Assembly (NCBI RefSeq): GCF_030013205.1
Contig: NZ_CP122648.1
Length of the DNA stretch: 64,000 nt
Origin: Escherichia coli
Lineage (GTDB): Bacteria; Pseudomonadota; Gammaproteobacteria; Enterobacterales; Enterobacteriaceae
Direction: 5' to 3' (one strand)
Below the pieces are notes generated by a model. The model was not told where the DNA came from. It ran no database searches and was given only the letters and a program-made list of their open reading frames with translations. The translations under genes and the position numbers were made by a program. Positions 19,852 to 54,113 of this stretch are shown here, in pieces. Within the stretch, counting starts at the first letter, position 1. Each line of letters begins with the position of its first letter.

Positions 19852-20040
19852 TCAGATAATTTCCGGTGATGTTTCCAGCGCATCCGCAATCAGTTTTTCG
19901 CCGCGCGGCCTGGAGCGGGTCAGCGCATTTGCCAGCGTGGAAGACGCCAGCCCGGCCCTGCGGGAAACCTCAGCCAGCGATGTTCCCTTTTTTCTCAGGC
20001 CCGCGATAATATCGGCGGGGTGCCAGTCGGGTTGCATCAT
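19852..20040 (-). pseudogene. Ner/Nlp-like HTH DNA-binding protein, shortened by an in-frame TGA
   Basis: MMQPDWHPADIIAGLRKKGTSLAEVSRRAGLASSTLANALTR... matches the Ner-like family; ends ...SPEII-TGA-PSRY where the family has IWPSRY (TGG to TGA). Confidence 0.55.
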
Positions 20041-20498
20041 GCTGGCCTCCCGTCGATAACCTGTATGCCGTCAGCAGTACATATCCAGCGTGGGGCGTTC
20101 AGATTGGCGGCAAAATACCAGACCAGTTCGCACAGCAGCCCGGTCAGCGTGGTTTCGGTTTCCGGCAGCAGCACGTGGCCGTTCAGTATCTGCGTCAGCG
20201 CCAGGCAGTAATCGCAGAGTGATCCTGCATCAGGCTCAAAACCGGGTGAAACATCGGGAAGATCATTCGTAATAAACCCGTCAATCAGATGTGGTGGGAT
20301 CGGCTCGTTCAGCGTGGGCCGCAACAGTGCAAGACAGGTATTAAGCCTGCCACAGAGCGCCGTTTTCAGCGCCGGATCGCAGCACTCGATGAGCGTTGTG
20401 GCAACGCGATCGCAGTACTCCGCCAGATCGGTGAAATCGGTAGCGGCACTAAAGGGAACAGCAAGTAAATTGCATTCAGAGGTGAGAGTAGTCGCCAT
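20037..20498 (-). CDS. hypothetical protein, cotranscribed with the Ner-like gene
   Basis: 153 aa ORF whose stop overlaps the start of the downstream Ner-like ORF by 4 bp; no family assignable. Confidence 0.4.
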   Translation of the reverse strand: MATTLTSECNLLAVPFSAATDFTDLAEYCDRVATTLIECCDPALKTALCGRLNTCLALLRPTLNEPIPPHLIDGFITNDLPDVSPGFEPDAGSLCDYCLALTQILNGHVLLPETETTLTGLLCELVWYFAANLNAPRWICTADGIQVIDGRPA

Positions 20499-21019
20499 AA
20501 GGCCGTCTACAGTGAGTGATAAATATTCCAGCCACTGGAGAGGCTAATCTCACGGGTGGTGGAACCGGACGGGGTTAGCCTTACCAGCCTCACTGACACT
20601 GGCGCGTCTTTCGACGCCCCCGCCCGATCCCGCCATTGAGATGAGACCGTGCGCGACACACAAATATTGTATCGTCAGTGAGGATCTTCAGGAGGCTAAT
20701 CCCGACGCCTGATTTTGCAGGCGCGGCGCAACAATACAATGTTCGGTAATTTTCAGCAAGAGGTTTAGCGGAAGCAGACGCACAGGAAAATACAATCACG
20801 CGATAAATATTAAATACAATTATATTTATATAAAATATATATTGAGCAATATGCAGACACTTTCCAGTAAATATCCTGTCAGTTAATTCGTCCCGTTGAT
20901 ATCAGTCAAAAAAATAAATGTAAAAAGAGCGTATTTCGTTTCATACAGTAACGTTATTTATCATTTTGTCCGGTGTCGCCAGCATCAGGCCAGATGAACC
21001 ATAAAAAAGGATATCAGCG

Positions 21020-32824: not shown

Positions 32825-35800
32825 TCAGAGGTTTTTATAACATGTCGCATGAGCAAACCCAAGCTTTTCATATACACTTTGCTCACCTGTTGCCAGAGAA
32901 ATTACGTATTGTTCGCTTGAGTTTGCGGGACTAGATGACCAATACATATTTGATTGAAAACCAGCTTCAGTCGTGTAATGCCCCATATCTCCCCATTCAC
33001 TGTACAGTGACCCGATGCCTCGGGAACGACTATGGTTTAAATGGTCTCCAAGGGGAAGTGTGTAGCCATTGCTACTGCAAAAATTTTCAGCAAGGCTGTA
33101 TATCATGAAAGCATCGCCGGCGTTCACCCACCAACTCTTCACTCGGATTTCGTATATATAGCTAGGGCCGCCTGTTTTTGGCGTCGCCGTAATCCTCTCC
33201 CATTTGCTGCCGACATTTTTAAATGTCACTTTACCGGTAGCATCAACATCGACCCAGGAGCCAGAGCTTGAAAACTCATAATCAGCCGCCGTTTTTCCTG
33301 GAGCAAAGTTGTCATTATTCAACTGATAATACGCCCCGGTGAATCCCTGCGAAGGGAATGTAGTTGTTGGTAGGTTAGCACCATTGACCAACACTGTACC
33401 GCTCATTATTTTGTCTTCTGCGCGAGTGAATTGTATTGTGGTACTCAGACCCGCTTGATGAACACCATTCAATACAGGGATCAGCGTTGCGATACCCTCT
33501 CCGCCGCCTGTAACAGTGGCTTTGTAATCACCGTTGATATTTTGACTGTAATCAATTGCGCTAATTTTCACATAGGGCACGTTAGTACCTGATTGCACAA
33601 ATTCCATCCCTTCAGAAACTTTGATCGGATTGCCTGATATATCGTACAAAACAAGATGTAGCTCAGCACTATCGGTATAGTCCCCTTTCAGTGATGACCG
33701 ATTGTTCTTAAGGACGGACTGCGAGGCGTCAGCCGGGCCTGCCACCAGCGTTATATCTACTGTTTGCATTCCACCAGCGGTCGTGACTGCGCTTACCGTG
33801 ACGCTACCTGTCATCGCTCCTTTCACGCTTGTTGTCGCGATTCCGTTTTGATCGGTCACCGCTGTTAATGACGTTAATGTGGCAGAGCCGCTTTTTAAGG
33901 TGAAGTACACAGTGAGACCTTCGATCAGGTTACCACTGCCATCCTCAACCGTTGCCTTTAAGGTACTTAAATCACTGTTGGTGGCGGCGATAGTCGATGG
34001 ATCAGCGATAAAGCTAGCAACATGTGCGGTGCTTGAGTTGCCAGTGACTTTCACGGTTGTCTGTGTCTGTATTGTTACGCCGTTATGGAACGATGCAGTC
34101 ACCGTATATGTACCGACTTTATTGCTGGTCAGAACGACTGGTGCCTGACCTGAAGAGTTGGTTCTCACTTTTCCGCCACTTAACGTTGCACCTTCTGGCG
34201 TTACGCTAAAGTTGATGACCTGACCTTCCACTGGAGTGCCATTTGCAGAAGTTAGCGTTGCCGTCAGAGTTGCACCTGTTGGGGAATTGACACCGATAAG
34301 CGGGCTGGACGCCGTGAGTGTCAGTTTTTCATCAATAGCCTCCAGTTGTTTCTCAATTGAGGCTCCATTCGCCAGGGATGCTTTCACCATATACGAACCG
34401 TTTCTTTCGGGCGTCATGGTGACCTCGGCTATACCCTGCGTATTAGTAGACACCGTATTCTGGCTGATGATCATTTGCGAGGATGGCTCTGCACTGAATG
34501 TCACGGGTTGATGCGCAACCGGGTTGCCAAACTGGTCGTTAACGTGAGCTTTAACTGCTACGTCTTGTGCGACCATTACCTGACCTTCAGGTATCTCCAG
34601 ACTGGTAAACGTCGCAGAATTAACATCTGCACTGGCATTCAGTAATCGCGAGATGACTTCAGTAGGTTTATCTGCCAGAGAGGCTGAAACTGTTTTCAGT
34701 CCGACCTCGGTGCTTGTCACAAGAATTTCAGCGAATCCCTGACTATCCGTTTCAACGCTGGTGCTGCTTAGCGTGACGGAGGTTCCGCGGAAATTAACTT
34801 TTATGCCTTCTACCGGGTTGCCGTTAGCGTCAGTGACGCTTGCCGTCATGGTTGCGCCCTCGGTCGTGCTGACGACGAATGAGTATACAGAGGTTAAGGA
34901 GGTCAGTTTTGCGGTACCAGCATCGGCAATCAACGTCACCTGTTTCGTATCACTGACACCATAATTGTTCACGCTAACTGTCACGGGGTAGGTGCCGGAT
35001 TTTGTACCGCTCAGTGTAACTTCAGCCTTGCCGTTGATGTCTGTAATGGCGGAACCGCCTTGTCCGAGAGTGAAGCTTGCGCTCACATCTGCCGGTAGCG
35101 TGAATGTCACCGCCTCATTGGCTAACGGGTTGCCGTTTCCATCAGTCACTGTTGCCTGAAGTGTGGTCATCCCAACGTTATTGGCGATAAAGTTGTCCTC
35201 GGTAACGTTAAGATTAACCTGCGCAGTGAGCGTATCCGCAGTAAAGTTCACCACCAGTTGTCCGCTCTTACCGCCAGCCATCGATGCTGTAACAGTATGA
35301 GCGCCTGCTTTTGTACCTTTCAGCGTGACTTTCGCTTTGCCTTCAGTATCCGTAATCGCTTTACCGCCATCGCTCAGCGTGAAGTTCGCCCTCACATCTT
35401 CCGGCAGAGTAAATGTTACCTCAGTGTTGGCTATCGCATTGCCCTCTGTATCAGCGACTGTTGCTGTGAGTGTCGTGAGATCGTTATTGTCGGCAATCAC
35501 CGGATCCTTAGAGGCTGCCAGCGAGATTTCAGCATTCGCGACGTTCGGCACATAGGTCACTGTTTGTTGCATCGAATCACCATTTTCGAGGGTTGCCGTC
35601 ACTTGATAAACCCCGGCTTTTGTAGCGGTAAAGCTTGCGTAAAAATTGCCGTAGTAGTTGGTAGTATATATACCAGTTATTACTGGGGGTCACGCCTTCA
35701 CTTGGTGAAACGCTGAGGGTCACCTGATGCTGGGGGACACCGTTGCCGTAATTATCCTTCACCTCAATATACAGACTGGTTGTCTCGCCTGCGGAGACTG

Positions 35801-37604
35801 TATCAAAAAGTGCATGTAGCAAAGTGAGATGTGCCGTAGACGCATCAGCATTGACATTAATTGATGTGCTAAGCGTGGAGCTACCATTTTCCAGACTGGC
35901 CTCAACGGTATCTGGTCTCGCTCCTGATTCTATCGAGGAGCGGGTATTGGTATAAGTGACGGTAGCCTTACCCTGTTCGTTCGTTACGGCTTGGCCGCCA
36001 TTCGTCATTTCGGCAGAGTTTGTTCTGCTGGTGAAGTTCACAGTCACACCTTTCACCGGAAAGCCATTATTATCAACGACTGTGGCGGTAATGACGCTGC
36101 CGGTGCTGTTCTGCGGGGTACCGGCGAATATGCTGTCTGGGACAGGCGTCAACTCGATAATTTTTGCCGCCGCTGTGTCGCCAATAAAATGCACAGTTTT
36201 GTTGTCGCTGGCACCAGTATTAGCCAGTGATGCAGTAACAGTCTGCTCACCAAAGGCAACGCCTGCGAGAGTGGCCTGCGCGATGCCAGACTCATTGGTA
36301 TTACTTTCCCCTGGGGTCAGGGTGAGGCCTGAAGAAGCTGTGCTGAATGTTACCGGAAGATTGTTCACCTCATTGTCGAACTGATCTTTGACCGTTGCAG
36401 TTAGCGTTGCGCTATCGACGCCATTACCTGTTATCTCATTTTTTGATATCTGCAGGACAACCTGAGCCGAGGTTTTGTCCGCCACAAACGTTACCGGCTG
36501 CGAATCACTGGTATTGTTATTACTCAGCGTTACGGTAACCGTATGCGTGCCCGCTTTTTTGCCTTTGAGGGTGACATGCGCTTCGCCATTGGCCTGAGTG
36601 ATGGCAATACCGTTATTTTCGAGGGTAAAGTTTGCCGCAACGTCCTGTGGCATGGTGAAGTTCACGGTTATTCCCGCCACCGGATGATTCGACGGATCTT
36701 TCACCGTTGCCGTCAGCTGCACGCTGTCGCTGTTATTCGTCACCACCTGTTGAGCAGGGATATTCAGCGTGACCTGCGCGTTGCTGGCATCGGGCGCAAT
36801 ATTGACTGTCTTCGTATCGTTGTTGCCGTTAGGCAGTGTGGCTTCGGCTGTATGAACACCCAAAACCGTGCCCTTAAGGGTAACTTCAGCAACACCACTG
36901 TCGTTTGTATTGCTCGTGCTCTGACTAAGTTGTGTATCAGCCGGGTTAGTACTAAAGGTGACCGGTAGATCTATTACTACGTTATCAAAAGGATCTTTCA
37001 CTGTTGCTGTCAGCGTTGTCTCATCCACGCCATTCCCAATGATTTCCGCTTTCGAGGTTTGCAGAACGACAACTGCGCTGTCCTTATCCGCCACGAATGT
37101 GACTGGCTGCGCATCGCTGGCATTATTGTTACCCAGCGTTGCGGTAACCGTATGCGTGCCCGCTTTTTTACCTTTGAGCGTGACATGCGCTTCCCCATTG
37201 GCCTGAGTGATGGCAATACCGTTATTTTCGAGGGTAAAGTTTGCCGCAACGTCCTGTGGCATGGTGAAGTTCACCGTTATTCCCGCCACCGGATGATTCG
37301 ACGGATCTTTCACCGTTGCCGTCAGCTGCACGCTGTCGCTGTTATTCGTCACCACCTGTTGAGCAGGGATGTTCAGGGTGACCTGCGCGTTGCTGGTATC
37401 GGGCGCAATATTGACTGTCTTCGTATCTCTATTGCCGTTACCCGCAGTTAAGCGGCGTAGTTTAATTCCCATCCCGCATAAAATTTGTCTGTCATTTATT
37501 TCTTCTCCACTTCTCTTCTTCGTAGCCATGCTTACCTTCCCTGAACGAGCTAACATAAATGCGCCCTTTCTAGCACAGCGAAAAAATATAAATCCTGATA
37601 GCAA
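32825..37604 (-). pseudogene. yeeJ: yeeJ-like inverse-autotransporter adhesin (Big-domain repeats), frameshifted and apparently lacking the beta-barrel region
   Basis: Two overlapping ORFs in different frames (35577-37604, 32825-35602); MATKKRSGEEINDRQILCGMGIKLRRLTAG runs straight into Ig-like repeats; C-terminal lectin-like end ...FAHATCYKNL. Confidence 0.75.
36480..37440. repeat. near-identical ~600 bp tandem duplication inside yeeJ (Big-domain coding repeats)
   Basis: 36541-36850 and 37141-37450 nearly identical at DNA level; protein motif NGN(R/N)DTKTVNIAPD(T/A)SNAQVTLNIPAQQ repeated. Confidence 0.7.
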
Positions 37605-37841: not shown

Positions 37842-37917
37842 TGGCTCCTCTGACTGGACTCGAACCAGTGACATACGGATTAACAGTCCGCCGTTCTACC
37901 GACTGAACTACAGAGGA
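37842..37917 (-). tRNA. asnT: tRNA-Asn (GUU)
   Basis: Reverse complement identical to the other Asn tRNAs. Confidence 0.9.
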
Positions 37918-38907: not shown

Positions 38908-38998
38908 CGGAGAGATGCCGGAGCGGCTGAACGGACCGGTCTCGAAAACCGGAGTGGGGGCAACTCCACCGGGGGTTCAAATCCCCCTCTCTCCGCCA
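38908..38998 (+). tRNA. serU: tRNA-Ser (CGA); attachment site of the prophage that follows
   Basis: ggagagatgccggagcggctgaacggaccggtctCGAaaaccgg...long variable arm...ggttcaaatccccctctctccgcca. Confidence 0.85.
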
Positions 38999-39050
38999 AA
39001 ATTCAATCACTTACACATCATTAAGTCAGTGACAAAAATCACACTTGGAA

Positions 39051-40076
39051 TTACTTGGAATATTTTCTTGGAATATTTTCAGGTAACGGGACATCAAGTG
39101 TTGGTGAAACTTTAACCTTTCTGTCATAGATTAGCACTTGCCCTTCGGTTTTGTGACCAGAGAAAAGTTGCTTATCCCGGCTGCTTCCTTCATAGTCTGA
39201 AATTCCTTTCGCCTTCAGATCATGAAAGGTGAAGTCGGTTAAAATACCTGAAATTTTGCCTGCGCGATTTCTTGCTTCTACCCACATTTCGTTAAAGCCT
39301 TTGTACATATATCGGTTGCCGTATTGATTGCTGATCACATAGGCAGATTTTGGTAACTGTTTTGCTTTTTCGATCGCTGCCTGTAATCGTGGACTCCATG
39401 CTTTTATCTGTTTTTTTCCGGTTTTCCCTTGCTGGATGAATATCCCGTCGTTTCCAATCTGTTCCCATTTCAGCGATAACACATCGGAAACCCTCGCTGC
39501 ACACAGATAGGCAATTTCCATTGCGATAAAAACAGGAAGAGGTGCAACGCTTAATACTGCCTGGTATTCTTTGTCGGTTACATATCGTTCGCGGTTTTTG
39601 GCCTTGAATTTACTTACACCTGCACATGGGTTAGCCTTCACGTACCCTCGCTCATACCCCCAACTGTAAACACGGGACATACGGCTTTTTTCATGGTTGG
39701 CTTGCGTTTTACTCTGCTCCCCTCTTTTGTCCATGTATCGACGGATGTGTTCTGGTTTTATGGAATCCGCTGGTACCTTACCGAATACGGCAAGCAACTT
39801 TTTTTGATGTTGCAGATAATCTTTTTGTGTTCTTGGACTAAGGTCACTGTAATAGGCGCTGGCGAGGAATTTTTCCCACAAGCGACCGAATGTCATTGCA
39901 CGATCGCGATTATTTACAGTTTCCTCATACTTTTTCCATAAAGCAGCCAAACCATCCTTGATGGCGGTTAGTGTGACAGATTCTCTGGATGTTGGTTTCC
40001 ATACATAACTATATTTATTTGGGTATACATTTGGAGGTAATTTTTCGTGTTCAGGATTTTTCCTTCGTCTTCCCAT
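39051..40076 (-). CDS. int: lambdoid phage tyrosine integrase
   Basis: 341 aa ORF adjacent to the tRNA-Ser 3' end; integrase-like C-terminal catalytic region. Confidence 0.85.
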   Translation of the reverse strand: MGRRRKNPEHEKLPPNVYPNKYSYVWKPTSRESVTLTAIKDGLAALWKKYEETVNNRDRAMTFGRLWEKFLASAYYSDLSPRTQKDYLQHQKKLLAVFGKVPADSIKPEHIRRYMDKRGEQSKTQANHEKSRMSRVYSWGYERGYVKANPCAGVSKFKAKNRERYVTDKEYQAVLSVAPLPVFIAMEIAYLCAARVSDVLSLKWEQIGNDGIFIQQGKTGKKQIKAWSPRLQAAIEKAKQLPKSAYVISNQYGNRYMYKGFNEMWVEARNRAGKISGILTDFTFHDLKAKGISDYEGSSRDKQLFSGHKTEGQVLIYDRKVKVSPTLDVPLPENIPRKYSK

Positions 40077-40279
40077 CAGATCGCACCAAAATTCGGCTCT
40101 ACCTCGCGTGGTGGTAAAGTTTTATTGCAGGTAAATAGATCCCGGCTGACAATCGGTTTGCCACTACGATTGGTATAGAACGGAAGCCCGTTTTCCATTA
40201 ACCATTTTCGCTGGTGGCTTGCATATTTGCAGCCCGTTAATATTAGCAATTCATCTTCGGTTAAAAATAAGCTGCTCAT
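40076..40279 (-). CDS. xis: excisionase-like protein
   Basis: 67 aa ORF overlapping the int start, in the expected xis position. Confidence 0.6.
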   Translation of the reverse strand: MSSLFLTEDELLILTGCKYASHQRKWLMENGLPFYTNRSGKPIVSRDLFTCNKTLPPREVEPNFGAI

Positions 40280-40337
40280 AGCTATATCTCATAACCGCCG
40301 CTAACTATATACGGTTAGCGGCAATTAGGGTTGAACA

Positions 40338-42779
40338 TTAAAAATCAGCCTGACTCGGGATCAGTTTTTGCCAGATAGCTGAAACGTATTTTGCCTGGTA
40401 ACGAGCGTCATCAAGTGCATTATGGCGCTCACCTTCGAATGGGATAGCAGTTCTGGCATCGAAGTCTATGGCTTTCCCCAGCTCAACGATTGTGCGTACA
40501 TCGCGATCGTTGCAGTAGCGCCACGGGCAGGGGATACCCTGTCGTTCGTATGAACGGCGTAAAATCACGTTGTCGAAGTTGGCCCCATTACCCCAGACCT
40601 GAACAAAAAATTCACCGGAGTTTTCGGCGATAAATTCCCGCAATTGCAGTAGTGCATCATCTAACGGGATTTCATCGGTCATAATGGCAGACTGCGCTTC
40701 ACGTGATTGCTTCAGCCACCATTTAATGACGTCACGATCAATGACTCCGCCAGCAGTATCCAGATCGATGGTCTTGCTAAATTCCGGTCCCATATCTCCG
40801 GTTTGTGGATCGAAAAATATTGCGCCTATTGAGATAATCGGGGCATCGGGATTTTTTCCCATGGTTTCAAGGTCGATCATCAGATGAATCCCCGCTCTGC
40901 TGGTGGATGTGAGCTTATGATGACCATTCACCTTAATTAAGGGATCTGTCGCCTCGCCAGTTTTATTATCGCTGGCGTGATGCTGATTGCCGCTAGGGTT
41001 CTCCTTGTGTGGATGTTCAGCGCCTTCCATTTCCTCCGGATCATTTTCCTGAACTTCAACCTGATTCTCTTCATCGAATGTTTCCTGGTATGTTGCGTCG
41101 CCCATCACCGCGCCACAATCAGGGCAGTTGCCGCCACCGCTCTGACCGCAGGCGGTGCAGACTTTTTCCGGTTCCTGTTGCGCTACTGGTTCGGATTGTT
41201 TCGTTTCTGGCTCGTTTTGTAACGCATTTGGGCTGTTTTGTTCCGCTTTTTGGTCGTTCCGTTCCGATTCATGCTGGTTCTGGTTCACAGAATCGCGAGT
41301 CTGGATCCCCTTGACCCATTTCGGATCATTAGGGTCGCTAATCCCCTCAACAAATTCACCACGCGATACAGCAAGTAACTTATCGGCGTCAGGCTGGCTG
41401 ATATTGGCTGCCTGCATAATTTTGTTTACTTCGTCAGCGGTGACTTTTACTTGGTTAGCGGAACTCACCTGCGACTGAGCATCCAGCGACTGCGCGTTCT
41501 GGCAATGTTCAGTTGTATCCGGTTCCATTGTTTCAGTTGTTGCCTGTTCACCTGCCATTGCGTCAGATGGTTGTGGTTTTTCTTCTTCTGTTTCACGCTC
41601 AGTAACCACCTCGCGGTTAATTTCTTCCAGGATATCTTTTTCCGGCGTATGCCGGGCAGCTGTGAGAGTTTCCTTGCTGGGGTTCTCGTGATCAGTTTCC
41701 GTCAAATAGGCGTTGATATACCCCTGAAGGCGTCCCGGGTAGTGATAAAATTCAGGGTGTGCGCTTCGGATAAGTGCAAAAATAGCGGCGCGGGAATAGT
41801 CCAGAACACCCGGGGTTGCACGAAGTGCTGCGGACCATTCTTTGAACGGACTTTCTTTTTTCAGGACTACTTCTTTTGCGCGACGATAAACGCTGCCGGG
41901 AATTTCATAAATATTAAAATCCATCGGAAGTGTGGCTGCTGCAATCTCCACATCCAGTGTGTCGAGGGTGTGTACTAAATTCGGATTGCGATCGGTTTTG
42001 TTCCCACCGCCAGCATTAGCACCGGAAGCCGTGCGGGTGATGCGTGAAACACGATTTCCTTTCATCCACTCTTTTGTCAGCAGACCCCGATCAGTGTAGT
42101 CAGCGTCCAGGTATGCTTCGAAAAAAGCAGTTATTAGTCCCAGGTATGAATTACCAGGATTAGGGAAAACTTTGTCAGTGTCACGAACCAGTTTGTGGAG
42201 GTCGCGAATCTCCAGCGAGTCGAGCAGACTGGTTTTATGCGAAATAGCCAGGGCAGTAACAGCCGGTAGTTCTTCAGCCCGTGCAATGTGTAATGCCTGG
42301 AGTTCGTCGCGTGAGACGTGCGTTACTGGTTTTTCGCTGCCGTGTTGAGCAAGCCAACGAATGGGCAGTTCCTGACCGGAGACAGGCAGAAGCATGCTCT
42401 CCTCAATCTCAGTCATGTCTTCGCCGTTGATGTTGGTATTGTCAGTGCTGGCTGGTTTGTCCTGAACAGAGGGGGAAGGGCCGATAAATGTCATTGTGAT
42501 GCCATCTTTCCCGCCTTTTTCATAGCGGTTGCAGAATTCAGTGTCAAACACGCCTTCTGGCGGAAGGTCGTCAACAACGGGCAAATTGACGCGGACGGGT
42601 TTTTTAAAGTCGTCTTCATCATAATCGTTGTCATCCATTGCGGTAATGCAGCGGGAGATTGCAACAGATAATTTTTTTGCTGTAGTCCAGTAAAAACCAC
42701 CTTTAATTCCCAGGCGTTTTCTTACTTTGTCATTTTTTGCTTCGCAATATAGTGCAAATTCTTCTTTATCAGTGCTCAT
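40338..42779 (-). CDS. prophage exonuclease with C-terminal DnaQ-like (DEDDh) 3'-5' exonuclease domain and internal CxxC...CxxC ribbon
   Basis: 813 aa; C-terminal motifs HLMIDLETMG...GNGANFDNVIL...HNALDDARY; proteins of this build are often annotated exodeoxyribonuclease VIII-like. Confidence 0.55.
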   Translation of the reverse strand: MSTDKEEFALYCEAKNDKVRKRLGIKGGFYWTTAKKLSVAISRCITAMDDNDYDEDDFKKPVRVNLPVVDDLPPEGVFDTEFCNRYEKGGKDGITMTFIGPSPSVQDKPASTDNTNINGEDMTEIEESMLLPVSGQELPIRWLAQHGSEKPVTHVSRDELQALHIARAEELPAVTALAISHKTSLLDSLEIRDLHKLVRDTDKVFPNPGNSYLGLITAFFEAYLDADYTDRGLLTKEWMKGNRVSRITRTASGANAGGGNKTDRNPNLVHTLDTLDVEIAAATLPMDFNIYEIPGSVYRRAKEVVLKKESPFKEWSAALRATPGVLDYSRAAIFALIRSAHPEFYHYPGRLQGYINAYLTETDHENPSKETLTAARHTPEKDILEEINREVVTERETEEEKPQPSDAMAGEQATTETMEPDTTEHCQNAQSLDAQSQVSSANQVKVTADEVNKIMQAANISQPDADKLLAVSRGEFVEGISDPNDPKWVKGIQTRDSVNQNQHESERNDQKAEQNSPNALQNEPETKQSEPVAQQEPEKVCTACGQSGGGNCPDCGAVMGDATYQETFDEENQVEVQENDPEEMEGAEHPHKENPSGNQHHASDNKTGEATDPLIKVNGHHKLTSTSRAGIHLMIDLETMGKNPDAPIISIGAIFFDPQTGDMGPEFSKTIDLDTAGGVIDRDVIKWWLKQSREAQSAIMTDEIPLDDALLQLREFIAENSGEFFVQVWGNGANFDNVILRRSYERQGIPCPWRYCNDRDVRTIVELGKAIDFDARTAIPFEGERHNALDDARYQAKYVSAIWQKLIPSQADF

Positions 42780-42987
42780 TATTGATAAACCTCATCACAG
42801 ATTTAAGGGTGAACAAATCTCTGCCATTGCTGACATATAAGAATGAAACTGGATATTTATTACGGTGCTGTTTTAAAATCCTGCCGGGATTTCGTTATCC
42901 TGGTGAATAACTTTATCGACCGGATAACAGTTGCCTGGAATTTTCTGTTCGGTTGCTGCGGCCATACATTCCGGTAATGACTCCAAC

Positions 42988-43491
42988 TTACTGATAGTGT
43001 TTTATGTTCAGATAATGCCCGATGACCTTGTCATGCAGCTCCACCGATTTTGAGAACGACAGTGACTTCCGTCCCAGCCTTGCCAGATGTTGTCTCAGAT
43101 TCAGGTTATGCCGCTCAATGCGCTGAGTATAACGCTTGCTGATAACGTGCAGCTTTCCCTTCAGGCGTGATTCATACAGCGGCCAGCCATCCGTCATCCA
43201 TACCACGACCTCAAAGGCCGACAGCAGGCTCAGAAGACGCTCCAGTGTGGCCAGAGTGCGTTCACCGAAGACGTGCGCCACAACCGTCCTCCGCATCCTG
43301 TCATACGCGTAAAACAGCCAGCGCTGACGTGATTTAGCACCGACGTAGCCCCACTGTTCGTCCATTTCAGCGCAGACAATCACATCACTGCCCGGTTGTA
43401 TGCGCGAGGTTACCGACTGCGGCCTGAGTTTTTTAAGTGGCGGAAAATCGTGTTGAGGCCAACGCCAATAATGCGTGCACTGGCGCGACAT
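42988..43491 (-). CDS. insB: IS1 transposase InsB
   Basis: Identical 167 aa product to the first copy. Confidence 0.9.
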
Positions 43492-43685
43492 CCGACGCCA
43501 TTCATGGCCATATCAATGATTTTCTGGTGCGTACCGGGCTGAGAGGCGGCGTAAGTGAACTGTAGTTGCCATGTTTTACGGCAGTGAGAGCAGAGATAGC
43601 GCTGATGTCCGGCGGTGCTTTTGCCGTTACGCACCACCCCGTCAGTAGCTGAACAGGAGGGACAGCTGATAGAAACAGAAGCCAC
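43410..43685 (-). CDS. insA: IS1 InsA
   Basis: Identical 91 aa product to the first copy. Confidence 0.9.
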
Positions 43686-43833
43686 TGGAGCACCTCAAAA
43701 ACACCATCATACACTAAATCAGTAAGTTGGCAGCATCACCTACATTCCTGCATTGTTCTGTGAACACTGACTGCAATATCAACTGACTCTCCGGAAACAA
43801 GAAAAACCGTCAGAATAAGTGCAAATACTGGAT

Positions 43834-44022
43834 TCATTGTGCACATCCTTTTGGCATCAGACGTAAACGGGCCAGCATTGAAACAATGCATACTTTATTT
43901 AATAACTCCCGTTCGTGTTTTCTTTTGTTAATGGCCTCTTCAGTGAATACAGGATTACTGATAGTGACACCAATTTCAAAACAACCTTCAGACGTATTAA
44001 CGTTTGGTAATAACGTTTTCAT
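43834..44022 (-). CDS. dicB: cell-division inhibitor DicB homolog
   Basis: Internal start MKTLLPNVNTSEGCFEIGVTISNPVFTEEAINKRKHERELLNKVCIVSMLARLRLMPKGCAQ (62 aa), closely matching the DicB I recall from Qin. Confidence 0.75.
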   Translation of the reverse strand: MKTLLPNVNTSEGCFEIGVTISNPVFTEEAINKRKHERELLNKVCIVSMLARLRLMPKGCAQ

Positions 44023-44196
44023 TATCGCGCCCTCAACAATGAGTTTTGTGATGCGGTGCCTGGTGCCTCCAGGTGACGTTAACCAGTTAACAATTAACGC
44101 CGGATACAGAGAATCCACCCATAACACTGTTTTGGGTTTTAACTGTTCCGCGTGCGCTTAGCCGCATTCACCGCATCACAAAATTCACTTTAAAAA

Positions 44197-44249
44197 TGGC
44201 GGCAGAGCAGTCACGGAGTAAAACTGATACCGCCAAACGTCACCAGAAA
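44197..44249 (-). ncRNA. dicF: DicF small RNA
   Basis: Reverse complement reads tttctggtgacgtttggcggtatcagttttactccgtgactgctctgccgcc, just upstream of dicB. Confidence 0.7.
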
Positions 44250-44793
44250 ATTGATAACAGAGGGCGTTGCAGCGGGGTTGTCACTTAAGCGTATGGTCAA
44301 CCTGACAACCCGGTGTCCTCAACGGGGAAGGAATAACCTCGCCATACTTACCGCCGCGCCATTTCGCGGAGTGCCACAACCGGAAGCGCACGGTCGACGA
44401 AAATTTAACGACAGGCTATCTATGAACCAGCTACCTCGCCGTGCGCTTTCGCGTTATGGTCTGACTTTTCAGGGAAATATCCTTTCAGTAAACTGTCAGT
44501 GCCGGATGTTCACCCGTGTCCGGCGCACGCACTCCACCTCACCCGTGGAGAACTCCTTAATTACCAACCCTCAGGAGGGTGAATGTTAAAATCAACTCTT
44601 ATTGCTAAATGCCTTTATCAAAATCGCATGGTAAGCAGCATTTCAATAGGCGAGTCTGCAGTTAAAAGTATTTTCGAAGAGTACTTCCCCGGGCATGATT
44701 TTAATAAATGGAATACCAAATTACCGCCAGCAGTTTCAACGCGTATTCTGAAATCAACTGAAAGAGCAAGTACAATTCGCGTTAACTATTTCA

Positions 44794-45201
44794 TTAAAGA
44801 TTTGTGGGATCTTTGATATCCACAGAGCCTAAAGTATGTGCATATGGATGTGCTATTGTGCGCCCTCGCAGATTTGCATCATTTTCTAAATTCACTGAAC
44901 GAAACAGGGCATCAACAAGGCTCTGTACAATGCAAAGGCAATCGAAGACTGTCGCTGTTTCTGTTTTGATTGATGAAAGAACATGGCCATTCACGCAAAC
45001 AGAAATTACCCGTTCATTAACATCGCTTTCCTGCTTTTGATTATCAGAACCATATAGCCCAGAAAAAGCATTGCGCACATTACGAACCATATTATCGATG
45101 GTTTCTTTTTTGGTGTATGCCGGGTCAATTTTCACCAGACTATCACCGAGAGTCGTTGCAGCAATTGTCTGGATTTCTTTTGGTAAATCTTTAAATTCCA
45201 T
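44794..45201 (-). CDS. hypothetical prophage protein (dic operon region)
   Basis: 135 aa ORF co-oriented with the dic operon; no family assignable. Confidence 0.4.
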   Translation of the reverse strand: MEFKDLPKEIQTIAATTLGDSLVKIDPAYTKKETIDNMVRNVRNAFSGLYGSDNQKQESDVNERVISVCVNGHVLSSIKTETATVFDCLCIVQSLVDALFRSVNLENDANLRGRTIAHPYAHTLGSVDIKDPTNL

Positions 45202-45223
45202 TATTAGCCTCGTTGGTTAGCTA

Positions 45224-45442
45224 TTAACGTGGGTATGTAATCATTCTGGCAATGCTTAATGCCGCTGCTTTTTCCAGATTGGTGATATCCTGCTCCAGAG
45301 CGGACAGATTTTCAGCCTGCTTAGCCCTGGCTTCATTGGCCCATTTCAGATCCTGCACTGCATTAATTTTCTGGCGCATCCACTTATAAAGTTCATCATC
45401 GGTATAGTCTGGCGCGATGATGACGGGTTCTCGTTTCTGCAT
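45224..45442 (-). CDS. hypothetical prophage protein (YdfB/YdfC-like position)
   Basis: 72 aa ORF in the dic operon. Confidence 0.4.
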   Translation of the reverse strand: MQKREPVIIAPDYTDDELYKWMRQKINAVQDLKWANEARAKQAENLSALEQDITNLEKAAALSIARMITYPR

Positions 45443-45601
45443 ACTGATTCCTCGCGGTGCTGTTTCGCTTATCAGCCGTTAGATTTTGCCGAACTGGAAA
45501 GCGCCTGTTTAAACTCACTGAAGCTGAGAGCTTCTTCGCCTTCGGCAAGTCCTTCGAAGTATTCTTCGTAAGCCTTTTCCATGATTGTGTCGAAATCCAT
45601 A

Positions 45602-45838
45602 TTACTCACCTGAGTTTCTTTCCAGCCAGCGACGCGCGCCAGATTCGGTTTTAAACGTTTTGCTTTTGGTATACGTCATCGCGGTGAACGTGCCGTCCTG
45701 GTTGGGAAACACGCCGTATACCAGAGATTCGTTGTTGCCAAGATCGATAGTATCCATGCTGACCTCATTTCCCCTTAACGCCGGGGTAGCGGAACAAAAA
45801 CCTGCTGCATAGTTATTAAAGTTGAACCCTGCCGTCAT
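45602..45838 (-). CDS. hypothetical prophage protein
   Basis: 78 aa ORF; a further ~47-codon ORF (MDFDTIMEKAYEEYFEGLAEGEE..., ~45460-45600, minus) lies just downstream. Confidence 0.4.
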   Translation of the reverse strand: MTAGFNFNNYAAGFCSATPALRGNEVSMDTIDLGNNESLVYGVFPNQDGTFTAMTYTKSKTFKTESGARRWLERNSGE

Positions 45839-46021
45839 GTTCTTACGCCTCGGGCTGGCTACTTAACCCCTGACCACTGCCTGGTAACTCGAAGTATTGC
45901 CCTGCATTCTGTGGGGCGGGGTGGGTTGGTATGAAAAGAAGGATACCCATAGGTATTTAAAAGTAAATACCCATGGGTAACTTTTTGCGGTGTCTTAACT
46001 GGTGACTAGTTGTTTGGTGAG

Positions 46022-46441
46022 CTATGATGCGTTTTGTGCTTTCTTTTTACGGATTTCTTCGTAGATCATATTGTAATACTGTTTTTTCTCTTCAAGAGTT
46101 TTTAATAAGTTATCCGCTTCACTTTCTGGCAGTTCGTCTAAGAGATCTAAAAAAATACGTTGTCGTGGCGTTAGAACCCTTGTTTCATAACTGGAGGCTG
46201 TGTTCGTTGATGATGAAACGATACCATCCATCCATCCCCGGGGTAACCCAAAGGACTCTTCGATAATCTCCACCATATCATCAGCGATCCGTTTTTTTCC
46301 CTTTTTCCCCTCTGGGTACAACATTCTTGATACATAAGAAGGCTCGCGCCCGATCTTTCTGGCCACGTTAACCGCTTTACCATCGCATTTCTCATCACGA
46401 ATTTTGATGAGTTGCTGTCGTCTAAATTCATATTTGTCCAT
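46022..46441 (-). CDS. prophage repressor (HTH; DicA/CI-like role)
   Basis: 139 aa with HTH AVNVARKIGREPSYVSRML; transcribed divergently from the cro-like gene. Confidence 0.6.
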   Translation of the reverse strand: MDKYEFRRQQLIKIRDEKCDGKAVNVARKIGREPSYVSRMLYPEGKKGKKRIADDMVEIIEESFGLPRGWMDGIVSSSTNTASSYETRVLTPRQRIFLDLLDELPESEADNLLKTLEEKKQYYNMIYEEIRKKKAQNAS

Positions 46442-46541
46442 AGGTAAATAATAGATGCGATTACCGCAAGGTAAACAACCTGTGGGTATTGACTTTTGTT
46501 TACCTGTGGGTATTCTTTACTGTGTTTACTAAGGAGTAGCT

Positions 46542-46823
46542 ATGGAAGAATTAAGAATATTTCTCAATTCTCTTTCGTCAGATGAACAGCGTATGTTTGC
46601 ATGCGAGTGTGGTACCAGCATCGGTTATCTAAGAAAGGCATTGAGTAAAGGTCAAGTGTTAGGGGCATCGTTATGCGTCCTTATTGAGCGAGCCAGTAAT
46701 GGTGAAGTTACACGTCAGCAACTAAGGCCTTTTGATTGGATGAATATTTGGCCCGAGCTGGAAGATACCAAAACGTTAACACAACCACTTTCTAGGAGCT
46801 TGATTCATGAAAATCAAGCATGA
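46542..46823 (+). CDS. Cro/DicC-like small regulator
   Basis: 93 aa ORF facing the repressor across a ~100 bp operator-like spacer. Confidence 0.5.
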   Translation: MEELRIFLNSLSSDEQRMFACECGTSIGYLRKALSKGQVLGASLCVLIERASNGEVTRQQLRPFDWMNIWPELEDTKTLTQPLSRSLIHENQA

Positions 46824-47232
46824 ACACATCCGCATGGCGATGAATGCCTGGGCGCATCCGGACGGTGAAAAAGTTCCGGCAGCTGAAATAACCAGGGCTT
46901 ATTTTGAACTGGGTATGACGTTCCCAGAACTGTATGACGACAGCCATCCGGAAGCCCTGGCTCGCAATACCCAGAAAATTTTCCGCTGGGTAGAGAAAGA
47001 CACCCCTGATGCAGTTGAAAAAATTCAGGCGTTGTTACCAGCGATCGAAAAGGCAATGCCACCTTTGCTGGTGGCCAGAATGCGCAGCCACAGTTCAGCT
47101 TATTTTCGGGAGCTGGTGGAGACGCGGGAGCGACTGGTGAGAGACGCTGATGATTTTGTCGCAGTGGCAATCGCCGGTTTCAATCAGATGAACCGTGGTG
47201 GCCCGGCAGGAAATGCTGTGGCAGTACATTGA
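46807..47232 (+). CDS. YdaT-like prophage protein
   Basis: 141 aa starting MKIKHEHI and ending ...VH, like Rac YdaT. Confidence 0.5.
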   Translation: MKIKHEHIRMAMNAWAHPDGEKVPAAEITRAYFELGMTFPELYDDSHPEALARNTQKIFRWVEKDTPDAVEKIQALLPAIEKAMPPLLVARMRSHSSAYFRELVETRERLVRDADDFVAVAIAGFNQMNRGGPAGNAVAVH

Positions 47233-47297
47233 CTGACAATAGCCATATCGAATCGCTTCCGGCAACTCGTGAGTAAAAAGATTCGGTATCAGAAGAG

Positions 47298-48374
47298 GTG
47301 AGTATGGCTAACGCCTGGCTCAGATTATGGCATGACATGCCAAATGACCCTAAGTGGCGAACAATTGCCAGGGTGTCAGGGCAGCCAATTGCAACAGTGA
47401 TGGCAGTGTATATCCACCTCCTGGTGAGCGCGTCACGAAATGTCACGCGAGGTCACATTGATGTCACGACAGAAGATTTGGCAAGTGCGCTCGACGTGAC
47501 AGAAGAGGTAATTGATTCAATTTTGCAGACGATGCAGGGGCGGGTACTTGATGGTGATTTAATCACTGGATGGGAAAAACGCCAGGTGCTTAAAGAGGAC
47601 AACGGCAATATTTCGCAAACCGCAAAATCTCCTGCAGAGCGCAAGAGGGCGCAGCGAGAGAGGGAAAGAAAGCGGGAACAAAATGGCGATTGTCACGGCG
47701 CGTCACGAAATGTCACGCACATGTCACGACGAGTCACGACAGATAAAGATACAGATAAAGATACAGATCAAGAAGATCAAAACACTATGGTCCATGGCGT
47801 AAAAAACGCCACGAACCGGGCAGGGGATGTTCAGACCGTCAATCTTGGTCAGCCAGCAGGCACGACACCGGAAGCCGATTCAGCGTATGCGCTGAAAGCC
47901 GATTCGGGCGCTGTGCAGCAGGTGATGACCGCAAGGCTGGAGCAATCACACCAACTGCAGCAGCCCGAAGCCGATTCCGCCATTCAGCGGGAAGCCGATC
48001 GGGTAGTCCCGGAAAACACCGGGCAGTCTGTGGGACGAGTGGATTATCCGGATGTGTTCGAACAGGTCTGGCGGGAGTACCCGTTGCGTGCCGGAGCAAA
48101 CCCGAAGAAATCCGCTTTCAGTGCCTGGAAGGCCAGATTACGCGAGGGGGTGCCACCAGAGGCCATGCTGGATGGCGTGAGGCGTTACGCAAGATACTTG
48201 GCGGCTACCGGGAAAACGGGAACGGAATTTGTTCAGCGAGCGACGACGTTTTTTGGACCGGACCGGAATTTTGAGAACCCCTGGTTGCTCCCGGTAAGCG
48301 GCACGAACAACCAGCGTTGTGTGAATCATATTTCTGAACCGGATAACGAAATTCCGCCGGGCTTCAGGGGGTAA
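47298..48374 (+). CDS. phage replication initiator-like protein with internal iteron clusters
   Basis: 358 aa; two clusters of GTCACG-type repeats inside the gene (~47425-47475, ~47690-47745), as in lambda O/ori. Confidence 0.5.
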   Translation: MSMANAWLRLWHDMPNDPKWRTIARVSGQPIATVMAVYIHLLVSASRNVTRGHIDVTTEDLASALDVTEEVIDSILQTMQGRVLDGDLITGWEKRQVLKEDNGNISQTAKSPAERKRAQRERERKREQNGDCHGASRNVTHMSRRVTTDKDTDKDTDQEDQNTMVHGVKNATNRAGDVQTVNLGQPAGTTPEADSAYALKADSGAVQQVMTARLEQSHQLQQPEADSAIQREADRVVPENTGQSVGRVDYPDVFEQVWREYPLRAGANPKKSAFSAWKARLREGVPPEAMLDGVRRYARYLAATGKTGTEFVQRATTFFGPDRNFENPWLLPVSGTNNQRCVNHISEPDNEIPPGFRG

Positions 48375-48414
48375 GTGTTAATTTCTGGTCATGAGGTAAT
48401 TTTCAGGAGGGCTT

Positions 48415-48837
48415 GTGGCAAAAGTTTTTACACAAGAAGAGCGGGAAAAAATTAAAGGACAGGTTGTTGAACTCGTACGCCAGAGTGGGCGTGAGACGTT
48501 ACGGCAACTGGAAGTCAAGACAGGTGCGACAAGATATCTGATGAGCGTTCTCGCAAGAGAGCTGGTTGCCAGCGGCGATGTATACAACTCTGGTTACGGG
48601 TTATTCCCGTCTGAACAGGCGCGTAAGGACTGGCAAAATGCCCGTAAAAAGCTCTCAAGGGCAAAGCTGAAGAAACCATCTGCGGTTGATCCGGACCTTA
48701 TCTGGTCATTACCTGACGGAGAAATACGTCGCTACGACAGGCGTCAGAACATAATCTGTCGCGAGTGCCGGAAGAGTGAAGTTATGCAGCGCATATTGTC
48801 GTTTTATCAGGGTGATGTTCGGTATTTATTGAAGTGA
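48415..48837 (+). CDS. hypothetical prophage protein
   Basis: 140 aa ORF following the replication gene. Confidence 0.4.
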   Translation: MAKVFTQEEREKIKGQVVELVRQSGRETLRQLEVKTGATRYLMSVLARELVASGDVYNSGYGLFPSEQARKDWQNARKKLSRAKLKKPSAVDPDLIWSLPDGEIRRYDRRQNIICRECRKSEVMQRILSFYQGDVRYLLK

Positions 48838-48983
48838 CGAGATTAAAGTGCATTAGTTCAGATGCAAATTGACATTTTGTGGCACAGGGTAGAGCTAGCG
48901 TGGTTGTCCGCTTTGTGCCAACAGCGGACATTATAGATGGTATATGTAGAAAGTGAACATGCGTAGATTGTATGATTTAGCCG

Positions 48984-49793
48984 TCACTTAATTATTGGAT
49001 AACTCACACAAGTATGACCGTTGCTTATCGCATACATTTGGTTTCCCTTAAGATTTACAAATGGAAATGTCGTATACTCATAATTTATAGAGGTCATATT
49101 AAATGTAAGGAATTTATCTTCAAGTTCTAATTTTGTAGAGTGGGCAGGGTATGTTCCTTCATTTTTCATTGTGATAATAAAACCGATAGGAAAAAAATGT
49201 AAAGCACAAATAAATGCCACATGTCCTTCGTTCATAAATGCTACACTTTGAGCGGATATGTGCATTCTGTGTGGGTAAAACCAGTAGTAAATATCATGAG
49301 TTTCCTCAAAACTTGAATTTTTACCCAAAACATAATCCTTTAAAGGTGTATAGAAGGGGCTATCTACGGGTTCTTTTTTACAATCTTCAACTGAAGTTGC
49401 TGATAGCACGTGCCCAATCATAGCCTTAGTGAAAGATATGCTATCAAAAGGTATTCTAATGAATGGATATACATTCATACCATTCATATATCGACTTAAC
49501 TGTTCTTTAAAGGACTTTGTTACATTTTCAATTGCAACATCGAGCCCACCTAATACCTTATTGTTACAGTGGCTGCAAATGGTTCTGAAATAAGAGCCAT
49601 TTTTAGCATTTAATGGTTTAACTGGTTCCTGAATACCAAAAAATTCGCTAACTGTTTTCTGCAAAACAGGGCCTAAGGTTATGGCGCACTTTGGAGGAAC
49701 ATGATCTTTTGTGAGCAAGCCATATTTCCCACAAATATTGCAATAACCTTCAGTAATGCCATTGTGCTTCCATCGTTCACTAATTTTCGTCAT
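48984..49793 (-). CDS. HNH-nuclease-domain protein with unknown C-terminal domain; candidate defense/abortive-infection cargo
   Basis: 269 aa; N-terminal HNH signature C18-x2-C21...D30-H31...N62/N65...C73-x2-C76-N-N-K; visibly AT-rich and opposite in orientation to the flanking prophage genes. Confidence 0.6.
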   Translation of the reverse strand: MTKISERWKHNGITEGYCNICGKYGLLTKDHVPPKCAITLGPVLQKTVSEFFGIQEPVKPLNAKNGSYFRTICSHCNNKVLGGLDVAIENVTKSFKEQLSRYMNGMNVYPFIRIPFDSISFTKAMIGHVLSATSVEDCKKEPVDSPFYTPLKDYVLGKNSSFEETHDIYYWFYPHRMHISAQSVAFMNEGHVAFICALHFFPIGFIITMKNEGTYPAHSTKLELEDKFLTFNMTSINYEYTTFPFVNLKGNQMYAISNGHTCVSYPIIK

Positions 49794-50116
49794 TTTTATT
49801 CCCTCAGTAGCATAAGCTATCTATACGTTTTTTAATCCTATCAAAGATACAACTTAACGTCAGGAAAATGATAGTGTTTATCTAAGTAATACAATTAACT
49901 TCAACGCGTGACAGTCTGCTTTTCGCTAAAAGCGGACTAGAAGGTTAGCTTGCGTCGGACTTGGCGTATTTAAAGAAGTGCTGGTGGTGACTGGTTGTTG
50001 TGTTCCATTTCTACAGAACAAAATCACAGAAACTATACCCAATAGTTGTATTGAATCACTGACGAGACAGCCTCATATTTATCAGGACTGGTGTACGTCC
50101 AATACAGGAGGTTGTG

Positions 50117-50206
50117 GTGCTGGTTCTCAAATGTGCGCTGGCTATTGCTGCTGTAATGGCAATTTATTGCCTTGCTGTTGTTCTTATGGATCGCCTTTCT
50201 GATTGA
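50117..50206 (+). CDS. candidate small hydrophobic peptide (29 aa), type I toxin-like
   Basis: AGGAGG 5 nt upstream of GTG; MLVLKCALAIAAVMAIYCLAVVLMDRLSD; below the ORF-track length cutoff, read by hand. Confidence 0.3.
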   Translation: MLVLKCALAIAAVMAIYCLAVVLMDRLSD

Positions 50207-50254
50207 TTTTATATTGGCGAGGTGACGTGAGTTAAGTAGAATTGCTGCGGGTGC

Positions 50255-50683
50255 TTGAGGCTATCTTCCTCTGATGTGTCAGGCATCCTCAACGCACCCG
50301 CACTTAACCCGCTTCGGCGGGTTTTGTTTTTTCCTGGCATTCTGGTTTACAATTCGCACGCCAGCCTGAACAACTGGCACCTGCTGCGCCAGCAGAGACA
50401 ACCGATGGCGCACGATACCAAATTACACAATTCTGATAATTCAGCCGTCTTTGCCAGCAGGCACGGGCGGCGCTCTCACGCATTTAAATCTGATTGGTAC
50501 CAGCATCCCCCATGTACTGAAGAACAAGCTGAATGGCTAATTCAGTGCTGCCGCAGACACGGATACGAGATTAAGAAAGCCCTCAGCCTCGATTATCGTC
50601 ACTGGATAATCTCCGTCAGGCTTCCTTACTCCGAACGCCCACCGCGTCCGTCCCGCACATTCCAGCAACGGATCTGGAGGTAA
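50255..50683 (+). CDS. hypothetical nin-region protein (possibly YbcN-like)
   Basis: 142 aa ORF upstream of the DUF968-like gene; start may be the internal Met (MAHDTKLHNSDN...). Confidence 0.4.
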   Translation: MRLSSSDVSGILNAPALNPLRRVLFFPGILVYNSHASLNNWHLLRQQRQPMAHDTKLHNSDNSAVFASRHGRRSHAFKSDWYQHPPCTEEQAEWLIQCCRRHGYEIKKALSLDYRHWIISVRLPYSERPPRPSRTFQQRIWR

Positions 50684-50684
50684 C

Positions 50685-51740: not shown

Positions 51741-52106
51741 ATGACTGAACGCATAGAATTTGTTTTGCCTTACCCGCCGACGGTGAATACCTACTGGCGA
51801 CGTCATGGCAATACGTATTTCATCTCGGAAGCCGGAAAGCGTTATCGCCGTGATGTGGCGCTAATTGTTCGCCAGCAGCGGCTGAAATTAAGCCTGTCCG
51901 GAAGGCTGGCGATAAAGATTATTGCAGAGCCACCGGATAAGCGCCGCCGCGACCTGGACAATATCCTGAAGGCACCACTGGATGCGCTGACGCATGCCGG
52001 ACTACTTATAGACGACGAGCAGTTTGATGAAATCAATATTGTGCGCGGTCAGCTCGTTCCTGGTGGGCGGCTGGGGATAAAAATCACAGAACTGGAGTGC
52101 GCATGA
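51741..52106 (+). CDS. rusA: Holliday junction resolvase RusA
   Basis: 121 aa with RusA motifs ...PDKRRRDLDNILKAPLDAL...; directly upstream of Q. Confidence 0.85.
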   Translation: MTERIEFVLPYPPTVNTYWRRHGNTYFISEAGKRYRRDVALIVRQQRLKLSLSGRLAIKIIAEPPDKRRRDLDNILKAPLDALTHAGLLIDDEQFDEINIVRGQLVPGGRLGIKITELECA

Positions 52107-54010: not shown

Positions 54011-54036
54011 TTTAATCTGATTATTATTTTCGGCCC

Positions 54037-54112: not shown

Positions 54113-54113
54113 A

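Follow-up and report, generated by a model that had tools for sequence, protein, structure and literature searches.

Loss of the N-terminal export module and a frameshift in the yeeJ locus of pig enterotoxigenic Escherichia coli

The window, a 64,000-nucleotide stretch of E. coli DNA, contains a long minus-strand locus that reads as tandem Ig-like domains in two overlapping frames, which raises the question of whether it still specifies a surface adhesin or is the relic of one. The gene order mtfA - tRNA-Asn - yeeJ - GT9 (yeeL) - shiA - amn, together with near-identity to yeeJ DNA, makes this the yeeJ orthologue of a pig enterotoxigenic E. coli (ETEC) lineage, and the tRNA-Asn, as the conserved upstream neighbour, fixes it as the yeeJ locus (Table 1). 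Two intact alleles were used for comparison, the long-variant yeeJ of strain M7424 (7,983 nt; 2660 aa; WP_001376948.1) and that of EC581. Precise alignment to both reveals a 3,279-bp deletion, one inserted T and 2-4 other substitutions, the sequences being otherwise collinear. The locus is thus homologous to an intact gene and orthologous in position, and it carries disabling lesions, fixed in the lineage and accumulating; we hold with high confidence that the inverse-autotransporter adhesin gene yeeJ (long, UMN026-type) survives here as a decaying pseudogene, in a porcine enterotoxigenic lineage. It is an ordinary dead yeeJ copy whose pseudogene status is already in public annotation: PGAP labels the identical RefSeq sequence ‘Ig-like domain-containing protein; frameshifted; incomplete; missing N-terminus’.

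Table 1. Features of the yeeJ locus and its upstream neighbour (window positions)
Feature	Position	Strand	Remarks
yeeJ pseudogene remnant	32825..37529	-	conserved ATG (MATKK...) to native stop codon
Retained 5′ end	37439..37529	-	codons 1-30 (MATKKRSGEEINDRQILCGMGIKLRRLTAG) and first base of codon 31
K-12-annotated start ATG	37470-37472	-	within retained 5′ end
Deletion junction	37438..37439	-	2-nt microhomology TA (37439-37440)
Repeat copy 1 (one Big_1 Ig-like domain)	37087..37440	-	5′ side truncated by deletion
Repeat copy 2	36478..36831	-	609 nt downstream of copy 1
Remnant of long-variant-specific segment (906-bp fragment missing from K-12 yeeJ)	36717..37438	-	from K-12 comparison
Inserted T (A on + strand), +1 frameshift	35675	-	AATAAC[T]GGTAT; outside any homopolymer
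Premature stop codon	35577..35579	-	32 codons past frameshift
3′ part of yeeJ, original frame	32825..35674	-	Ig-like domains and C-terminal lectin-like region
tRNA-Asn (asnT position)	37842..37917	-	conserved upstream neighbour of yeeJ

When the allele is set beside known relatives, its type becomes clear. It occupies the same locus (mtfA - tRNA-Asn - yeeJ - GT9 glycosyltransferase - shiA) as YeeJ of the UMN026/M7424 type, the long variant of this type Ve inverse autotransporter; the remaining 4.74 kb are 99.9% identical and alike in Ig-repeat architecture, the 906-bp long-variant segment included, but codons 31-1123 are absent and a +1 frameshift is present. The short variant of K-12 MG1655 (b1978; characterized in PMC5595812) is likewise orthologous in gene and context, with 95.8% identity over the 3′ 4.0 kb. 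In K-12 the N-terminal export module is complete and the 906-bp fragment missing, whereas the window allele is the opposite in both respects; collinearity between the two begins only at gene-strand position 1285. The yeeJ of M7424 is 906 nt longer than that of K-12, and this UMN026-type fragment of the long variant has been described (PMC5595812). As in the inverse autotransporters of the intimin/invasin family, the remaining passenger consists of Big_1/Invasin_D3-type Ig domains followed, ahead of the C-terminus, by an invasin-D4-like region; unlike them, the window allele has neither an IAT_beta barrel nor LysM, and the defining secretion module is therefore absent.

The deletion is in frame and removes codons 31-1123 of the 2660-aa protein, and with them the signal-peptide core, LysM, the entire beta-barrel and about five Ig domains (Big_1). 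The 562 nt 5′ of the break, promoter region included, are 100% identical to EC581, in which the gene is intact. The loss from codon 31 onward includes ICLVTQLAFPMAAAA, the hydrophobic segment at the core of the Sec signal peptide, and the best 15-aa hydropathy near the N-terminus falls from 1.78 in the intact protein, over that same segment, to 0.79 in the window allele. Pfam places IAT_beta (PF11924) at residues 144-419 of intact YeeJ with 373 bits and finds it in neither window ORF, and a tblastn search with YeeJ residues 31-520 gave no match in the 64-kb window, so the translocator is missing. The same search detected no periplasmic LysM; the stretch assigned to this domain, after the signal peptide and before the barrel, is part of the deleted codons. 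Since Pfam at E<=0.001 leaves LysM unlisted in the intact protein as well, its loss is read from the coordinates and the published domain map. The original prediction had proposed that the barrel was missing, and this is borne out: ORF 35577-37604 (-) reads MATKKRSGEEINDRQILCGMGIKLRRLTAG and then passes directly into Ig repeats, the intervening 3,279 bp being deleted relative to M7424, and an intact barrel was looked for by precise alignment and not found.

The deletion came first, an illegitimate event at the level of microhomology that fused codon 30/31 to codon 1124 and, over the 3,279 bp lost, left the frame intact. It took out the signal peptide's hydrophobic core, the LysM domain, the translocator with its 12-stranded beta-barrel and the leading Ig-like domains. 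With no Sec signal, and no barrel through which the passenger could be exported, any product would be confined to the cytoplasm, and we infer from this domain content that the adhesin function would thereby have been lost. That yeeJ is non-functional, as had been claimed from the sequence, agrees with the deletion of signal-peptide core, LysM and barrel, with the frameshift in the remainder and with the NCBI annotation; the conclusion is correct and unremarkable.

The passenger still carries tandem Big_1 Ig-like domains (5 + 6 stretches by Pfam), Invasin_D3, Invasin_D4 and the C-terminal lectin-like cap, divided between two ORFs that overlap at 35577-35602. Its reading frame is interrupted by the extra T, which leads to the premature stop; when this T is removed in silico, a single 1,567-codon ORF results that differs from M7424 YeeJ by 2 amino-acid changes and the absence of residues 31-1123. 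As for the downstream 925-aa ORF, its GTG ‘start’ at 35602 is a mere ORF-caller artefact. A +1 frameshift had been expected near 35600-35660; the frameshift is real, and the T responsible lies 15 nt beyond that range.

The distribution of the two lesions indicates the order in which they arose. Among 5,426 complete E. coli genomes, the deletion junction sequence occurs in 9 and the T insertion in 7, all of them within those 9. Over 5.3 kb the window is 100% identical to eight pig isolates, K_EC180 from Korea and seven Belgian ETEC, and differs at two positions from the ninth, ETEC4075. ETEC4075 and ETEC4068, sister strains from the same study, carry this deletion but not the T, and in ETEC4068 an IS2 sits inside the remnant. 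The frameshift in neighbouring shiA is found in 14 genomes, all 14 with a yeeJ deletion, which is of the window type in nine (seven of these nine with the T insertion); a sister clade has a larger, 6.6-kb yeeJ deletion. As seven of nine deletion genomes carry the T and one other carries IS2 instead, the deletion came first and decay continued. In this second step, with selection gone, sub-lineages gained further lesions, the T stopping translation in the window's sub-lineage and IS2 entering a sister strain instead.

The same genomes bear on whether the lesions exist at all. Repeat-rich genes collapse easily in assemblies and several other window genes are flagged as frameshifted, so that deletion, frameshift or both might be assembly or sequencing artefacts concealing an intact yeeJ. 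This is extremely improbable, given that the identical junction in nine complete genomes and the identical T in seven come from two laboratories in two countries and that the K_EC180 genome was read by PacBio plus Illumina sequencing (PMC8071739). Furthermore, the junction joins unique sequence to repeat with 2-nt microhomology, where collapse between two copies would look otherwise, and the lesions nest cleanly with the shiA frameshift. The narrower proposal that the T is a sequencing error, which would have undone the predicted frameshift, was rejected on the recurrence of this T in seven assemblies and its position outside a homopolymer.

Nor do the remaining ORFs argue strongly for a gene that is truncated and still alive. 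The in-frame deletion, the unchanged upstream region and the long ORFs left behind would suit a shortened Ig-repeat/lectin protein, cytoplasmic or exported in another way, that has taken on a new role and is made from the 675-aa or the 925-aa ORF. However, signal peptide and barrel are both missing, the GTG of the 925-aa ORF is merely the first start codon after the stop in that frame, and the differing later lesions of sister strains (T, IS2), together with the 6.6-kb deletion in the sister clade, form a pattern of relaxed selection, which leaves such a protein very unlikely. We therefore retain the decaying pseudogene as the best description of this locus. In strains without the T, such as ETEC4075, the 1,567-codon ORF is open behind an unchanged upstream region and could yield a cytoplasmic Ig-repeat protein.

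The Ig repeats next to the junction invite a different account of the deletion. The two copies are 94% identical over 354 nt and 86% over 494 nt; the full 609-nt unit is 78% identical, and its other 255 nt only 56%. The original prediction of a near-identical tandem duplication of ~600 bp thus holds for the presence of a repeat and overstates its extent. The same pair occurs in intact yeeJ alleles of many strains and is longer there (688 nt at 89%), and so it is no strain-specific defect: the ~350-nt repeat at 609-nt spacing is a native Ig-domain repeat, part of the normal architecture of the published long variant (PMC5595812), and not a lesion. A recent strain-specific duplication that destabilized the locus and led to deletion by homologous recombination would account for a direct repeat at this spacing whose first copy adjoins the junction. 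It is nevertheless scarcely credible, because the pair is present in intact alleles and matches the 906-bp long-variant region (PMC5595812), the high identity is limited to 354 nt, and the deletion begins on its left in unique signal-peptide sequence, the two ends sharing no more than TA. On this last ground, homologous recombination between Ig repeats was rejected as the cause, and a microhomology-level event remains our preferred origin of the deletion.

The window thus adds one more lineage without the YeeJ biofilm adhesin, namely pig ETEC related to O139:H1 strains, and its main use is for correct annotation and for inventories of ETEC adhesins. The loss fits published data that yeeJ is often disrupted, with 15 of 96 genomes affected in one survey (PMC5595812), beyond which we found nothing in the literature on yeeJ pseudogenes or deletions. 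Further independent disruptions were also seen in our analysis. Like the window allele, the other disrupted alleles (those of the survey, and W13-16, fM51a, GDSC2227PM, BKQWHE, AST19, 1218KP and NCTC9087) are loss-of-function alleles at the native locus and mostly deletions that take the N-terminal export module. They differ in that each has its own 3′ breakpoint, with 325 bp to 6.6 kb deleted, and in that the T insertion is confined to the window's sub-lineage.

More interesting than the pseudogene itself is a recurrent identical breakpoint. At least seven different yeeJ deletions, in several unrelated strains and at least five flank haplotypes, share the 5′ breakpoint directly after ...ACTGCGGGTA. 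The window's exact breakpoint was also found in W13-16, fM51a, GDSC2227PM, BKQWHE, AST19 and metagenome contig L013, whereas the disruptions of 1218KP and NCTC9087 do not use it. From this common start the deletions run for 325 bp to 6.6 kb, and their downstream ends are unrelated in position, two backgrounds having nested pairs; a metagenome scan for ...GGGTA followed by any base except T returned one contig, a seventh junction type. Many deletions with one fixed start in several haplotypes point to a fixed nick, a fork-arrest site or a similar determinant, and we tentatively propose, with rather less than even confidence, that deletions in yeeJ may have a site-specific hot spot at window 37439, the base that follows ...ACTGCGGGTA at codon 30/31. 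Such a determinant may sit in or beside the retained left flank and cause E. coli strains to lose YeeJ export convergently. If the breakpoint is site-specific, yeeJ would offer a natural example of a deletion hot spot that has one fixed end and no IS element, and would suggest repeated selection for, or mutational bias towards, adhesin silencing.

Several possible determinants were looked for at this site. No hairpin signal emerged when the DNA was folded within ±50 nt or ±20 nt, for either strand (z-scores -0.9 to +1.2), an inverted-repeat search found no inverted repeats at the breakpoint, and no genome had the 120-nt region split into two places, as an inserted IS or prophage would leave it. 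The microhomology potential of the left site is unexceptional (20th-75th percentile for k = 2-6 among 1,328 candidate positions), as is its 15-mer similarity to the passenger. By eye, the deleted-side sequence bears a faint resemblance to the IS1 inverted repeat and to the Ter core, and a Dcm site (CCTGG, starting 5 nt to the 3′ side of the break) might conceivably play a role.

The yeeJ remnant (table below) has the GT9 glycosyltransferase gene and shiA downstream, and its neighbours are those of yeeJ in K-12. Among pig isolates, K_EC180 (Korea) and seven Belgian ETEC strains match this region at 100% identity over 5.3 kb, with an eighth Belgian strain, ETEC4075, differing at two positions; K_EC180 is collinear with the whole window except for four single-base gaps. 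Identical sequence is labeled a pseudogene by PGAP.

Features of the yeeJ region and of the rest of the window
Feature	Window position	Strand	Description
ORF 1 of yeeJ remnant	35577-37604	-	675 aa; conserved YeeJ N-terminus ...MATKKRSGEEINDRQILCGMGIKLRRLTAG, then Ig-like repeats at once
ORF 2 of yeeJ remnant	32825-35602	-	925 aa; different frame from ORF 1; YeeJ C-terminus at end
tRNA-Asn	37842-37917		upstream of yeeJ remnant, with mtfA
GT9 glycosyltransferase gene (yeeL homologue)	30734-32563	+	IS1 inserted at 31635-32402
shiA	29104-30419	-	1-nt deletion at 30186/30187, CCGACC[G]CTAGG, giving 372-aa and 78-aa ORFs
tRNA-Ser(CGA)	38909-38998		adjoins lambdoid prophage remnant
Lambdoid prophage remnant	about 39026-58800
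Second IS1	42973-43740
Island at another tRNA-Asn	15483-25747
RHS repeat protein gene	21021-25013		1,330 aa
Diol dehydratase reactivase alpha-subunit gene	1-334		frameshifted, at window edge
Cobalamin riboswitch	6859-7033

Two intact alleles are closest to that of the window, one from the pig isolate EC581 and the other, of 7,983 nt and 2660 aa, from M7424. Alignment with them shows a 3,279-bp deletion in the window allele, besides a single extra base and 2-4 substitutions. The deletion fuses ...CTTAACTGCGGGTA to ACGGCAATAGAG... between window positions 37439 and 37438, its ends having TA alone in common, and removes codons 31-1123 in frame. YeeJ has been mapped as a signal peptide, a 49-aa LysM domain, a 12-stranded barrel, Invasin_D3, Big_1 repeats and a C-type lectin domain (PMC5595812). 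The Pfam inverse-autotransporter barrel, PF11924, lies at residues 144-419 of intact YeeJ, inside the deletion, and is found in neither window ORF; the hydrophobic signal-peptide core, ICLVTQLAFPMAAAA, is also lost, and the 64-kb window holds no coding sequence for the barrel, LysM or signal-peptide core. The original prediction of a missing barrel was correct, and precise alignment to intact alleles recovered none.

The +1 frameshift that it proposed is likewise real: at 35675 the gene strand carries one additional T (AATAAC[T]GGTATAT), and a stop codon follows 32 codons further on, at 35577-35579. Taking the T out restores a single 1,567-codon ORF equal to M7424 YeeJ minus residues 31-1123, save two residues, so that the GTG taken as the "start" of the 925-aa ORF is an ORF-calling artefact. 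A sequencing error is not upheld as an explanation, since the T lies outside any homopolymer and occurs in seven genomes in a nested distribution, among them K_EC180, which was sequenced with both PacBio and Illumina (PMC8071739).

A tandem duplication of about 600 bp had also been suggested; the repeat exists, although it is not near-identical over its full unit. Segments 37087-37440 and 36478-36831 match at 94% over 354 nt and the match extends to 494 nt at 86%, whereas the full 609-nt period is 78% identical, its other 255 nt reaching 56%. Intact alleles have the same pair, which in them spans 688 nt at 89%; the window's is shorter since the deletion cut into its copy 1. Alignment with K-12 shows M7424 yeeJ to be exactly 906 nt longer at the repeat, matching the 906-bp fragment present in the long (UMN026-type) variant and absent from the short (MG1655-type) one, between which no functional difference was seen (PMC5595812). 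We therefore regard the repeat as normal Ig-domain architecture with a known length polymorphism and reject it as a lesion; it was also rejected as mediator of the 3,279-bp deletion.

The distribution of these lesions gives their order. Among 5,426 complete E. coli genomes, nine carry the window-type junction and seven the T insertion, every one of the seven being a junction carrier; the deletion occurs without the T in ETEC4075 and ETEC4068. In ETEC4068 (locus L005) the remnant is interrupted by IS2 at about 5159-6487 of the locus, an independent secondary lesion. The 1-nt deletion in shiA, the shikimate transporter gene, is present in 14 of the 5,426, exactly the nine window-type strains plus five with a larger yeeJ deletion (O139:H1 W13-16, P15-25, ETEC6333, ETEC6334 and ETEC1701). 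EC581 shares with the window lineage only the IS1 in the GT9 gene, and since its yeeJ is intact this IS1 must be older than the yeeJ deletion. Such a nested hierarchy is the pattern of real, inherited mutations, and the deletion therefore preceded the T insertion.

With the barrel missing and the frame shifted, yeeJ is non-functional, as originally proposed. In type Ve secretion the passenger needs a Sec signal and a barrel to reach the surface; lacking both, the window's passenger would be expected to stay off the surface, with loss of adhesin and biofilm function. The locus has undergone an illegitimate in-frame deletion at 2-nt microhomology, and sub-lineages have since acquired further lesions independently. 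The later frameshift, the IS2 and the bigger deletion found in related strains all point to relaxed selection. Disrupted yeeJ is common: the gene was mutated or deleted in 15 of 96 genomes (PMC5595812), and several further independent disrupted alleles were encountered among the strains compared here. As a pseudogene of a well-studied gene, and one that annotation already marks as such, the window locus is unremarkable, its sole aspect beyond the ordinary being a recurrent breakpoint.

Seven distinct deletion junctions (in the window and at loci L008, L011, L012, L013, L014 and L015), ranging from 325 bp to 6.6 kb, have one identical 5' end, after ...ACTGCGGGTA at window 37439 on the gene strand.

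Deletions sharing the 5' breakpoint (M7424 coordinates)
Type	Occurrence	Deleted	First retained bases
Window type	9 genomes	3,279 bp	ACGGCAATAG
W13-16 type	5 genomes	6,606 bp	CATATACGG
GDSC2227PM	1 genome	3,572 bp	ACCGCAACGC
fM51a type	12 genomes	5,621 bp	CCGGCAGATG
BKQWHE	1 genome seen	5,484 bp	CGCTCACTGCG
AST19 / EC0026B	1 + 5 records	5,285 bp	GCCAACACTGAG
Metagenome contig L013	1 contig	325 bp	ACAGATAGCC

Two more alleles break downstream of the common base, NCTC9087 by 7 nt and 1218KP by 56 nt. The seven junctions lie on at least five flank haplotypes, two backgrounds having two nested types each. There is some ascertainment bias, several alleles having been found by probes carrying the left flank; the W13-16 type, however, came to light via shiA, and the coincidence of seven 5' ends at a single base is far beyond chance. 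Three of the seven deletions keep the reading frame and four break it, and the right ends are out of phase with the Ig repeat. Direct microhomology at the junctions is 0-4 nt (TA in most), the left site's potential for it is unexceptional, the breakpoint has no significant hairpin, and no genome searched has an IS or other element inserted there. One reasonable hypothesis is that the common end arises at a fixed nick or fork-arrest site.

Elsewhere in the window, the lambdoid remnant retains a frameshifted integrase, exonuclease, dicB, the Q antiterminator, lysis genes and terS/terL, with zinT directly after; as no structural genes or yodB are annotated in this region, the prophage and adjoining host DNA appear truncated. 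The second IS1, inside a DUF1482 gene of the prophage, is identical to that in the GT9 gene. The island at the other tRNA-Asn has two frameshifted integrase genes and the RHS gene, and in the sister strain W13-16 its RHS region is changed further by an IS1. The frameshifted reactivase gene and the annotated riboswitch belong to the pdu/cob region.
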